Below the pieces are notes generated by a model. That model was not told the DNA's origin. It did no database searches and was given only the letters and a program-made list of their open reading frames with translations. A stretch of 64,000 bases of DNA from Eledone cirrhosa (lineage: Eukaryota), in the NCBI GenBank assembly GCA_964016885.1, contig OZ024743.1, positions 225,432,001 to 225,496,000 on the forward strand, read 5' to 3'. A program made the position numbers and the translations under genes. Each line of letters begins with the position of its first letter. Position 1 is the stretch's first letter. Positions 43,533 to 64,000 of this stretch are shown here, piece by piece.

Positions 43533-43877
43533 TTAAAGAATCACACACCAAGAATCGCTGGACTTCTTCTTTTGAGAAATTTCTTCATATGAATGAGGAG
43601 GGCTTGTTGCATACGAATGTCGAGATCTTTCTTCATATGAATGAGGAGGGCTTGTTGCATACGAATGTTGAGAGTTTTCTTCATATGAACGAGGGGGGCT
43701 TGTTGCATACGAATGTTGAGAGCTTTCTTCATATGAACGAGGAGGGCTTGTTGCATACGAATGTTGAGAGCTTTCTTCATATGAATGAGGAGGGCTTGTT
43801 GCATACGAATGTCGAGATCTTTCTTCATATGAACGAGGAGGGATTGTTGCATACGAATGTCGAGATCTTTCTTCATA
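43533..43877 (-). pseudogene. Terminal reading frame of a putative repeat protein: (YEERSRHSYATSPPRS)x6-YEEISQKKKSSDSWCVIL*, with C-terminal CaaX
   Basis: Manual translation: ...tat gaa gaa att tct caa aag aag aag tcc agc gat tct tgg tgt gtg att ctt taa (stop at 43535-43533). Open for 114 codons back to a TAA at 43880-43878. There is no ATG in this stretch, so it is absent from the ORF track. Confidence 0.5.
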
Positions 43878-46800
43878 TTAACGAGGATAGCTTGTTGCAT
43901 ACGAATGTCGAGAGCTTTCTTCATATGAATGAGGAGGGCTTGTTGCATACGAATGTCGAGATCTTTCCTCATATTAATGAGGATAGCTTGTTGCATACGA
44001 ATGTCAAGATCTTTCTTCATATGAACGAGGAGGGCTTGTTACATACGAATGTCGAGATCTTTCTTCATATGAACGAGGAGGGCTTGTTGCATACGAATGT
44101 CGAGATCTTTCTTCATATGAATGAGGAGGGCTTGCTGCATACGAATGTCGAGATCTTTCTTCATATGAATGAGGAGGGCTTGTTGCATACGAATGTCGAG
44201 ATCTTTCTTCATGTGAACGAGAAGGGCTTGTTGCATACGAATGTCGAGATGTTTCTTCATATGAACGAGGAGGGCTTGTTGCATACGAATGTTGAGAGCT
44301 TTCTTCATATGAATCGAAAGTGAAAAATGTCCCCGAAACAAGGGAGATAATTCGAATATCACTTGAATTGTTTTTCATTAGCAAACAAATAATTTCGAAT
44401 GTCGAGATCTTTCTTCATATGAATGAGGAGGGCTTGTTGCATACGAATGTCGAGATGTTTCTTCATATGAACGAGGAGGGCTTGTTGCATACGAATGTCG
44501 AGATCTTTCTTCATATGAACGAGAAGGGCTTGTTGCATACGAATGTTGAGAGTTTTCTTCATATGAACGAGGAGGGCTTGTTGCATACGAATGTTGAGAG
44601 CTTTCTTCATATGAATGAGGAGGGCTTGTTGCATACGAAGGTCGAGAGCTTTCTTCATATTAACGAGGATAGCTTGTTGCATACGAATGTCGAGATCTTT
44701 CTTCATATGAACGAGGAGGGCTTGTTGCATACGAATGTCGAGATCTTTCTTCATATGAATGAGAAGGGCTTGTTGCATACGAGTGTCGAGATCTTTCTTC
44801 ATATGAACGAGGAGGGCTTGTTGCATACGAATGTCGAGATCTTTCTTCATATGAATGAGGAGGGCTTGTTGCATACGAATGTCGAGATCTTTCTTCATAT
44901 GAACGAGGAGGGCTTGTTGCATACGAATGTCGAGATCTTTCTTCATATGAATGAGGAGGGCTTGTTGCATACGAATGTCTAGATCTTTCTTCATATGAAC
45001 GAGGAGGGCTTGTTGCATACGAATGTCGAGATCTTTCTTCATATGAACGAGGATAGCTTGTTGCATACGAATGTCGAGATCTTTCTTCATATGAATGAGG
45101 AGGGCTTGTTGCATACGAATGTCGAGATCTTTCTTCATATGAATGAGGAGGGCTTGTTGCATACGAATGTCGAGATCTTTCTTCATATGAACGAGGGCTT
45201 GTTGCATACGAATGTCGAGAGCTTTCTTCATATTAACGAGGATAGCTTGTTGCATACGAATGTCGAGAGCTTTCTTCATATGAACGAGGAGGGCTTGTTG
45301 CATACGAATGTCGAGAGCTTTCTTCATATGAATGAGGAGGGCTTGTTGCATACGAATGTCGAGATCTTTCTTCATATGAACGAGGAGGGCTTGTTGCATA
45401 CGAATGTCGAGATCTTTCTTCATATGAATGAGGAGGGCTTGTTGCATACGAATGTCTAGATCTTTCTTCATATGAACGAGGAGGGCTTGTTGCATACGAA
45501 TGTCGAGATCTTTCTTCATATGAACGAGGATAGCTTGTTGCATACGAATGTCGAGATCTTTCTTCATATGAATGAGGAGGGCTTGTTGCATACGAATGTC
45601 GAGATCTTTCTTCATATGAATGAGGAGGGCTTGTTGCATACGAATGTCGAGATCTTTCTTCATATGAACGAGGGCTTGTTGCATACGAATGTCGAGAGCT
45701 TTCTTCATATTAACGAGGATAGCTTGTTGCATACGAATGTCGAGAGCTTTCTTCATATGAACGAGGAGGGCTTGTTGCATACGAATGTCGAGAGCTTTCT
45801 TCATATGAATGAGGAGGGCTTGTTGCATACGAATGTCGAGATCTTTCTTCATATGAACGAGGAGGGCTTGTTGCATACGAATGTCGAGATCTTTCTTCAT
45901 ATGAATGAGAAGGGCTTGTTGCATACGAATGTCGAGATCTTTCTTCATATGAACGAGGAGGGCTTGTTGCATACGAATGTCGAGATCTTTCTTCATATGA
46001 ATGAGGAGGGCTTGTTGCATACGAATGTCGAGATCTTTCTTCATATGAACGAGGAGGGCTTGTTGCATACGAATGTCGAGATCTTTCTTCATATGAATGA
46101 GGAGGGCTTGTTGCATACGAATGTCTAGATCTTTCTTCATATGAACGAGGAGGGCTTGTTGCATACGAATGTCGAGATCTTTCTTCATATGAACGAGGAT
46201 AGCTTGTTGCATACGAATGTCGAGATCTTTCTTCATATGAATGAGGAGGGCTTGTTGCATACGAATGTCGAGATCTTTCTTCATATGAATGAGGAGGGCT
46301 TGTTGCATACGAATGTCGAGATCTTTCTTCATATGAACGAGGGCTTGTTGCATACGAATGTCGAGAGCTTTCTTCATATGAATGGGGAGGTCTTGTTGCA
46401 TACGAATGTCGAGATCTTTCTTCACGTGAATGAGGAGGGCTTGTTGCATACGAATGTCGAGATCTTTCTTCATATGAACGAGGAGGGTTGTTGCATACGA
46501 ATGTCGAGATCTTTCTTCATATGAATGAGGAGGGCTTGTTGCATACGAATGTCGAGATCTTTCTTCATATGAATGAGAAGGGCTTGTTGAATACGAATGT
46601 CGAGATCTTTCTTCATATGAACGAGGGCTTGTTGCATACGAATGTGGAGAGCTTTCTTCATATGAACGAGGAGGGCTTGTTGCATACGAATGTCGAGATG
46701 TTTCTTCATATGAATGAGGAGGGCTTGTTGCATACGAATGCCGAGATGTTTCTTCATATGAATGAGGAGGGCTTGTTGCATACGAATGTCGAGATCTTTC

Positions 46801-61800: not shown

Positions 61801-64000
61801 CCTATGAACGAGGAGGGCTTGTTGCATACGAATGTCGACATCTTTTTTCATATGAATGAGGAGAGCTTGTTGCATACGAATGTCGAGATCTTTCTTCATA
61901 TGAACGAGGAGGGTTTGTTGCATACGAATGTCGAGATCTTTCTTCATATGAACGAGGAGAGTTTGTTGCATACGAATGTCGAGATCTTTCTTCATGTGAA
62001 TGAGGAGAGCTTGCTGTATACGAATGTCGAGATCTTTCTTCATATGAACGAGGGCTTGTTGCATACGAATGTAGAGATCTTTCTTCATATGAACGAGGAG
62101 GGCTTGTTGCATACGAATGTCGAGATCTTTCTTCATGTGAATCAGGAGGGCTTGTTGCATACAAATGTTGAGATCTTTCTTCATATGAATGAGGAGGGCT
62201 TGTTGCATACGAATGTCGAGATCTTTCTTCATATGAATGAGGAGAGCTTGCTGTATACGAATGTCGAGATCTTTCTTCATATTAACGAGGATAGCTTGTT
62301 GCATACGAATATCGAGATCTTTCTTCATATGAATGAGGAGGGCTTATTGCATACGAATGTCGAGAGCTTTCTTCATATGAACGAGGAGGGCTGGTTGCAT
62401 ACGTATGTCGAGATCTTTCTTCATATGAACGAGGAGAGTTTGTTGCATACGAATGTCGAGAGGTTTCTTCATATGAACGAGGAGGGCTTGTTGGATACGA
62501 ATGTCGAGATTATTCTTCGCATGAATGAGAAGGGCTTGTTGCATACGAATGTCGAGATCTTTCTTCATATGAATGAGGAGGGCTTGTTGCATACGAATGT
62601 CAAGATCTTTCTTCATATGAACGAGGATGGCTTGTTGCATACGAATGTCGAGAGGTTTCTTCATATGAACGAGGAGGGCTTGTTGGATACGAATGTCGAG
62701 ATTATTCTTCGTATGAATGAGAAGGGCTTGTTGCATACGAATGTCGAGATCTTTCTTCATATGAATGAAGAGGGCTTGTTGCATACGAATGTCAAGATCT
62801 TTCTTCATATGAACGAAGATGGCTTGTTGCATACGAATGTCGAGATCTTTCTTCATATGAACGAGGGCTTGTTGCATACGAATGTCGAGCGCTTTCTTCA
62901 TATGAATGAGGAGGGCTTGTTGCATACGAATGTCTAGATCTTTCTTCTTATGAACGAGGAGGGCTTGTTGCATACGAATATCGAGAGCTTTCTTCATATG
63001 AACGAGGAGGGCTTGTTGCATACGAATGTCGAGATCTTTCTTCATATGAACGAGGAGGGCTGGGTGCATACGAATGTCGAGATCTCTCTTCATATGAATC
63101 AGGAGGGCTTGTTGCATACAAATGTTGAGATCTCTCTTCATATGAACGAGGAGGGCTTGTTGCATACGAATGTCGAGATCTTTCTTCATATGAACGAGGA
63201 GGGCTTGTTGCATACGAATGTCGAGATCTTTTTTCATATGAATGAGGAGGGCTTGTTGCATACGAATGTCGAGATCTTTCTTCATATGAACGAGGAGGGC
63301 TTGTTGCATACGAATGTCAAGATCTTTCTTCATATGAACGAGGAGGGCTTGTTGCATACGAATGTCGAGATCTTTCTTCATATGAACGAGGAGTGTTTGT
63401 TGCATACGAATGTCGAGAGGTTTCTTCATATGAACGAGGAGGGATTGTTGGATACGAATGTCGAGATTATTCTTCGTATGAATGAGAAGGGCTTGTTGCA
63501 TACGAATGTCGAGATCTTTCTTCATATGAATGAGGAGGGCTTGTTGCATACGAATGTCAAGATCTTTCTTCATATGAACGAGGATGGCTTGTTGCATACG
63601 AATGTCGAGATCTTTCTTCATATGAACGAGGGCTTGTTGCATACGAATGTCGAGCTCTTTCTTCATATGAATGAGGAGGGCTTGTTGCATACGAATGTCT
63701 AGATCTTTGTTCATATGAACGAGGAGGGCTTGTTGCATACGAATGTCGAGATCTTTCTTCATATCAACGAGGGCTTGTTGCATACGAATGTCGAGCTCTT
63801 TCTTCATATGAATGAGGAGGGCTTGTTGCATACGAATGTCAAGATCTTTCTTCATATGAACGAGGAGGGCTTGTTGCATACGAATGTCGAGATCTTTTTT
63901 CATATGAATGAGGAGGGCTTGTTGCATACGAATGTCAAGATCTTTCTTCATATGAACGAGGAGGGCTTGTTGCATACGAATGTCGAGATCTTTTTTCATA
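43574..64000. repeat. 48-bp tandem satellite, over 20 kb, continuing past the window end, with higher-order structure
   Basis: Consensus gagatctttcttcatatgaaYgaggagggcttgttgcatacgaatgtc. 45-bp variants lack one GAG. Single-base deletions occur at about 46488, 57740 and 61750, and there is an 81-bp interruption at 44315-44395. Confidence 0.98.

Follow-up and report, generated by a model that had tools for sequence, protein, structure and literature searches.

The window analysed here is a 64,000-nt stretch of the Eledone cirrhosa genome (assembly GCA_964016885.1, contig OZ024743.1, positions 225,432,001 to 225,496,000), and the element in question is a 48-bp tandem array at its end which, in one minus-strand frame, reads into a unique C-terminus that closes with a CaaX motif (Cys-aliphatic-aliphatic-X) and a stop codon. 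Tandem Repeats Finder reports the array as 15.3 copies at 43580-44313 and 410.5 copies at 44396-64000, and parsing into units gives 426 units, 107 of them distinct, over 43590-64000, so that it is by structure a head-to-tail satellite (426 times 48 bp across 20.4 kb). The array is still open at the window end (64000), and both the copy number and the 20.4-kb span are lower bounds. From the array towards the stop, the locus consists of the following features.

44396-64000, minus strand: main 48-bp satellite array of about 410 units, from Tandem Repeats Finder and unit parsing, with a 24-bp dimer origin.
44310-44395, minus strand: non-repeat, frame-shifting insert, from unit parsing, without a match in the rest of the window except for the unit bases next to it.
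43590-44309, minus strand: terminal block of 15 units in the tail frame, from unit parsing, with three stops (44006, 43976 and 43880).
43533-43877, minus strand: last open frame, from the list of open reading frames (ORFs), 114 codons made up of six units, a partial unit and the tail, with no ATG.
43533-43571, minus strand: unique tail KKKSSDSWCVIL-stop, with the CaaX codons at 43547-43536 and TAA at 43535-43533, not derived from the unit and with homologous contigs in a relative.

The minus-strand frame of the unit is YEERSRHSYATSPPRS, and it continues with no change of frame into YEEISQKKKSSDSWCVIL-TAA (codons 43589-43533), so the in-frame continuation of the 48-bp unit into a unique CaaX tail that was claimed in an earlier note on this DNA is plainly visible. 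The tail is not recognisable as a decayed unit (P = 0.59). The unit itself is an old 24-bp dimer with halves that match at 15 of 24 positions (P = 1.3e-4), and units differ from the consensus by 4.2% on average. By length, 392 units have 48 nt, 30 have 45 nt, two have 44 nt, one has 47 nt and one has 110 nt. In 30 of the 34 length variants the change is a 3-nt deletion in which one CCT was lost, and since these losses were spread by block duplication, they are not counted here as conservation of the frame. The 110-nt unit owes its length to 82-86 nt of non-repeat sequence (44395-44314), which shifts the frame, so that all units beyond 44396 are out of frame with the tail and only 15 are in frame; beyond the insert, three further units are not multiples of three (44, 44 and 47 nt). 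Blocks of 10 to 88 units have been duplicated within the array, among them a near-exact duplication of 84 units or 4010 bp, with stretches of 2753 and 842 bp that are identical at a lag of 4010. This 4010-bp tandem duplication (55163-62768) is either very recent or an artefact of assembly.

The C-terminal motif directly before the stop is CVIL-TAA (43547-43533). In a yeast reporter, human GGTase-I is reported to geranylgeranylate CVIL completely (PMC11152559). CVII, the form found in the relative discussed below, is described as serving the mammalian enzyme well as a substrate and the plant enzyme poorly (PMC3017772). The tail likely carries a geranylgeranylation signal, as predicted from its motif. 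An earlier description of it as a polybasic CaaX holds for the CaaX but overstates the basic part, which consists of three lysines (KKK) separated from the Cys by SSDSW, with no second Cys, and which is reduced to KK in the relative.

How often such an ending arises by chance was estimated from 300,000 simulated read-outs with the composition of the local flank, in which CaaL ends occurred at 3.2e-4, broad CaaX ends at 1.4e-3, and CaaX ends with at least three Lys or Arg at 1.7e-5 to 5e-5. Among real six-frame stops in the non-array part of the window, 4 of 4252 follow a CaaX and none of these has three basic residues. At any one locus a CaaX with lysines is rare, yet it is not negligible over a scan of very many windows, and since the motif can be reached by chance in a very large scan, independent evidence is needed. 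The locus could be a non-coding minisatellite lying beside unique DNA that merely reads KKKSSDSWCVIL-stop, with any transcription being read-through or a long non-coding RNA. We regard this as unlikely, though a serious contender, because many array edges are sampled when very many windows are scanned and because the consensus unit is open in four of six frames (15% of shuffled units are open in at least four), so that some open frame at an array edge is expected. If the CaaX is chance, the array is an ordinary minisatellite. The chance per edge, however, is 2e-5 to 1.4e-3 depending on the strictness of the motif, and two further observations set out below also argue against coincidence, namely that the relative's junction is in frame and enriched in an RNA-like data set, and that the GC periodicity of the unit independently picks the tail frame.

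Sequencing runs from the relative allow the junction to be compared. Four of seven runs contain part of the region; they belong to one study, the best share is 0.20, and none is listed as RNA. Three runs and one restriction site-associated DNA sequencing (RAD-seq) run (X5) were compared over 42720-43636, one unit included; X5 has zero depth over 43495-43556. Unit, tail and flank are joined in one contig of X2 (record 16; 217 nt, 18 other letters, 23 gap letters) and in one contig of X4 (record 21, 395 nt). Flank divergence is about 10%, ten differences being listed for the 100 bp that follow the stop and none for 43539-43563, and the ten differences after the stop indicate a related species or a diverged lineage and not the source of the window. 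Among the differences listed, CVIL becomes CVII-stop, the third Lys becomes Ser, and a His becomes Arg. A 12-nt in-frame gap (EISQ, four codons) is listed before the stop, and the non-triplet gaps listed (10 nt and 1 nt) lie only after it. Retention of the frame, the Cys and the stop in the relative lends modest support to a coding origin. The relative probably carries an amplified unit as well: unit depth in X1 is about 3,200 versus 9-24 in the single-copy flank, and units continue head to tail. X2, which is X1's own sample, shows a unit depth of 120 only, so filtering makes the copy number unreliable.

X4 differs from the other runs in ways that suggest an RNA origin. Its contigs total 88 M letters versus about 1,400 M in the shotgun-like runs. 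Over 18 dispersed-repeat bins the ratio of X4 to X2 depth has a median of 0.014 (0.001-0.42), the X1 to X2 ratio being 0.62-0.90 (0.81), and over four tail bins the X4 to X2 ratio is 0.88-1.12. Several sites in 42869-43046 have an X4 depth of 19 that comes entirely (19 of 19) from one variant, where X2 depth is over a thousand; this single variant is rare in X1 and X2, and its depth is at the level of the tail (19 vs 21). We infer that X4 is an RNA library in which the unit, the tail and a stretch of 3' flank of up to about 700 nt are present as transcripts, and the relative may still transcribe the locus.

Base composition of the unit bears on the same question. In the tail frame, G+C occupies 8, 11 and 2 of 16 sites at codon positions 1, 2 and 3 (P = 0.002 plain), and when the dimer is allowed for, P is 0.008 for the tail frame and 0.025 for any position. 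This codon-like periodicity fits a codon-shaped unit in an AT-rich genome, a view qualified by the finding that differences between the 24-bp halves are not concentrated at third positions.

The relative's junction, the RNA-like set and the GC periodicity are three independent, individually modest supports for a coding origin of the satellite, the proposal made in the earlier note; no support was obtained for current coding constraint on the array, for a special status of the 114 open codons, for a usable start codon or good splice acceptor, or for a homologous protein. Our preferred explanation, which we hold with about even confidence, is that the locus is the 3'-end relic of a lineage-specific gene for a prenylated repeat protein, whose coding repeat expanded into a satellite and whose function is probably lost here. 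The ancestor would have been the last exon of an orphan gene, encoding a Ser/Arg/Pro/Tyr/His-rich repeat followed by a geranylgeranylation signal, and inside this terminal exon an 8-codon motif would have doubled to 16 codons. Unequal exchange or replication slippage would have amplified the 16-codon repeat, later in blocks of 10 to 88 units, after which stops may have spread with the duplicated blocks and the array would have behaved as an ordinary non-coding satellite of at least 20 kb. The ancestral product may have been a disordered, phosphorylatable chain, tethered to membranes by a C20 lipid on the tail Cys. A bolder version is possible, which we put forward tentatively and think rather doubtful as a whole: an undescribed lipid-anchored disordered repeat protein whose 16-codon repeat ballooned in at least two species, is still transcribed, and kept its prenylation signal during decay.

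The locus is a candidate for a satellite born from an exon, better than chance and short of proof. The origins of satellite units are rarely traceable, and the unit here is still in frame on a recognisable protein C-terminus. With the relative as a second time point, the change of a coding repeat into a non-coding satellite could be traced among species. An open-repeat transcript in any relative would point to a new orphan family of prenylated repeat proteins.

Several observations weigh against a coding origin. The differences listed for the relative leave out 117 substitution rows and 18 gap rows, 3-4 of the 18 differences of X2 record 16 are not placed, and all four listed coding differences alter residues (L>I, K>S by two bases, H>R). 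At 10% neutral divergence a CaaX-stop would be retained in 35% of cases, and a single gap falls in frame by chance about one time in three, which puts retention in the relative at about 0.1 under neutrality (0.35 times one third) and favours coincidence. Tail and flank do not differ significantly in rate (Fisher P = 0.17), and a unit variant with a 1-nt gap is present in the relative's DNA (depth 82/123 in X2). X1 to X4 all come from one study. Neither library type nor strand is recorded for X4, contig depth reflects expression poorly, the stretch from the tail to 42869 is not covered by any one contig, and depth is zero at 43154-43184. Third positions in the tail itself show no AT richness (7 of 12 are G+C), Met is absent from all 114 open codons, leaving no start codon there, and the array's 5' end and any upstream exon lie outside the window.

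A homologue of the tail-frame protein, to which the earlier note had looked for support, did not turn up. Three word searches (against longer proteins, against proteins of similar length, and with the last 40 residues at E up to 10) gave no homologous protein, a full HMMER scan gave 36 matches to low-complexity unrelated repeats of which none is CaaX-ended, no Pfam family was found in 43536-43877 or 44007-44414, and the Atlas returned no usable match to the tail frame. Coverage of this animal group in the protein library was not controlled, which qualifies all of these negatives; as they stand, the lack of a homologous protein in the searches favours a chance ending. No P-loop GTPase domain stands before the CaaX, and what precedes the tail is 20 kb of repeat. 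One unnamed protein, P0018, has a 15-16-residue Ser/Gln/His/Pro repeat with 49% identity to the query over part of its length; this repeat is superficially similar and lacks a CaaX tail, and we therefore treat it as probable convergence. The tail pattern occurs at three loci in contig scans, outside open frames, at 46-51% GC and without further similarity, and these were set aside as chance. A metagenome scan by protein confirmed 0 of 143 candidates, the unit pattern is absent from the viral and prokaryote contigs, and Rfam has no match in 38000-46000. No description of the 48-bp repeat or the locus turned up in the literature covered, most subscription papers and supplements being outside that coverage.

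The array today is a non-coding satellite. Recurrent stops had been reported in its units, and the counts bear this out: CGA>TGA occurs in 57 and TCA>TAA in 29 of the 392 full-length units, and 106 of all 426 carry a stop in register. With these stop-bearing units and four frame-breaking ones, the array does not have the open frame purged of stops that marks a coding variable number tandem repeat (VNTR). Among 63 distinct substitutions in the tail frame, 15 are synonymous versus 13.6 expected and 7 are nonsense versus 4.4 expected. Compared with matched permutations, coding constraint is absent in all six frames under each way of counting the variants (once, per haplotype or per copy), and this neutrality in every frame is another point in favour of chance. 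A signal of CpG decay (5 of 6 CpG transitions versus 24 of 42 others) was dropped.

These same variants bear on whether the real coding frame is instead the shifted frame MKKDLDIRMQQALLVH, the CaaX in the neighbouring frame being incidental. This frame contains ORFs of 2474, 1097, 954 and 847 codons, has only six stop-bearing copies, and shows 241 copy-weighted synonymous changes versus 161 expected. With mutation type matched, however, neither signal is significant (synonymous P = 0.13-0.66; stops P = 0.28-0.87), only four single changes can create a stop in the MKKDLDIRMQQALLVH frame, its recognition score in the Atlas is low with weak, uninformative matches, and both the insert and three 1-nt losses interrupt the frame. 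We consider coding in this frame, which is already disfavoured, very improbable.

Returning to the exon-relic explanation, its tail frame could also belong to a gene that still works, in which an upstream exon splices over the array into the last units to make a short prenylated protein, the array being an exon-born intron. The last six units are open through to the tail, stops are rarer in the 150 tail-proximal units than farther out (20/150 vs 86/276), and the relative's RNA-like set includes unit-to-tail sequence. The 114 stop-free codons singled out in the earlier note do exist (ORF 43533-43877), but they are not special, 19 of 110 stop-free runs in the array being as long or longer and the longest covering 17 units; six open units are thus common. 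The stop gradient tracks the duplicated blocks and so is not independent evidence. Between the insert and the stop there are 51 AG dinucleotides, of which 48 are AAG, and both CAG sites are poorly placed: that at 44135 is upstream of the three stops, and that at 43558 lies within the tail, without a pyrimidine tract. No convincing splice acceptor for a short terminal exon was found in this interval, and the suggestion that a short terminal part is used by splicing is not supported by the open part, which has neither an ATG nor a good acceptor; for this reason a protein from this haplotype is unlikely. A working gene seems to us improbable, and the remnant in this genome is probably untranslatable.

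The sole open minus-strand frame of the insert is the one in register with the downstream units, and this frame contains an ATG at 44378 (MKNNSSDIRIISLVSGTFFTFD), which would start a 281-codon frame were three downstream stops absent; with them in place, the window contains no translatable frame for a CaaX protein. Shuffled inserts are open in register in 13% of cases and open with an ATG in 5%, and since 5% of shuffled inserts give an in-register ATG, the one at 44378 is only a hint. No special fold of the insert was found (z = 0.04). Rare unit variants (SSQ, NSQ) precede the insert in an order resembling that before the tail, like a duplication of the array end.

The locus belongs to satellite DNA and has a CaaX motif, and it is not a Ras/Rho gene. 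With Rho, Rac and Rap GTPases and G-protein gamma subunits it has in common a C-terminal CVIL-stop-type CaaX (CaaL/I) with upstream lysines, but unlike the CaaX GTPases it has no GTPase or other Pfam domain, and an Asp is among the five residues that separate its three lysines from the Cys; unlike known CaaX proteins, it has no start codon or transcript shown in this genome. A lamin was also considered: the cephalopod lamin C-terminus is a short basic, Trp-containing membrane-targeting tail (consensus TPsQqkkgWlFW) without a CaaX (PMC10125929). Given lamins of that description, and with no lamin domain or similar sequence at the locus, this identity was rejected.

Coding VNTR exons, such as those of mucins, filaggrin and trichohyalin, are arrays that stay open, and none of this type is known to end in a CaaX. 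The array resembles them in a unit that is a multiple of three, in Ser/Arg/Pro/His-rich low complexity, in high copy number and in block duplications, but a quarter of its units bear stops and its variation is neutral. Other satellites derive from parts of retroelements or from ribosomal DNA spacers, and some macrosatellites bear genes, such as D4Z4/DUX4. If the coding origin is right, the array would resemble D4Z4/DUX4-type and element-derived satellites in having started from a piece of functional sequence that unequal exchange then multiplied; unlike D4Z4/DUX4, the seed would be a 16-codon repeat in a last exon, still joined to the C-terminus, and the unit is 48 bp and not a whole gene.

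Beyond the stop, the 3' flank holds three further features.

43476-43498, minus strand: degenerate echo of the tail motif, without the Cys codon and stop, overlapping ATTAAA; 0 of 3000 shuffles reach its score.
43216-43432, strand not assigned: dispersed repeat with a depth of 1,000-60,000 in the relative's whole-genome-like runs and a partial copy at 37412-37469.
42720-43060, strand not assigned: dispersed repeats with AATAAA at 42864-42859, X4 having essentially a single variant of 42869-43046 at tail depth.

Both poly(A) hexamers named earlier are present on the minus strand, ATTAAA at 43483-43478 and AATAAA at the position just given. Hexamer density on this strand is 0.83/kb for AATAAA and 0.46/kb for ATTAAA, and given this density and the location of the AATAAA inside a high-copy dispersed repeat, neither hexamer is evidence alone. 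An X4 contig of 151 nt (record 24, depth 2), lying on 43469-43563, differs from the main contig and stops matching the window about 10 nt beyond ATTAAA; the 58 loose letters may be a poly(A) tail or point to a paralogue. The echo repeats the tail motif (43556-43539) 58 bp downstream, at 43498-43481. The relative's 10-nt gap falls between both copies and makes their spacing 48, the period of the unit, which may be chance; with that spacing the echo would stand in the tail frame behind the stop.

The surroundings consist of retroelements, a broken mariner, pieces resembling short interspersed nuclear elements, and microsatellites, and no host gene was recognised among 24 frames scanned. A long interspersed nuclear element endonuclease domain lies in a 454-codon open frame cut by the window start (2-1363). 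Three more large low-complexity arrays follow, at 5388-6633 (50/100-bp), 6890-10339 (CA-type) and 10642-15651 (GTG/GAT-rich 135-bp unit), the last with open frames of more than 1,600 codons, of which one frame was scanned and gave no Pfam match. Fragments of a retroelement without long terminal repeats (23504-27401) encode, on the minus strand, RVT_1 and then a PHD finger; another PHD finger lies on the plus strand at 26646-27398. The mariner-type transposon (40114-40997) retains inverted ends of about 105 bp and a remnant of the transposase helix-turn-helix. Nearer to the array, a 159-bp direct duplicate with 93% identity (41494-41650 and 42548-42706, about 1 kb apart) flanks AT-rich, weakly repetitive sequence.

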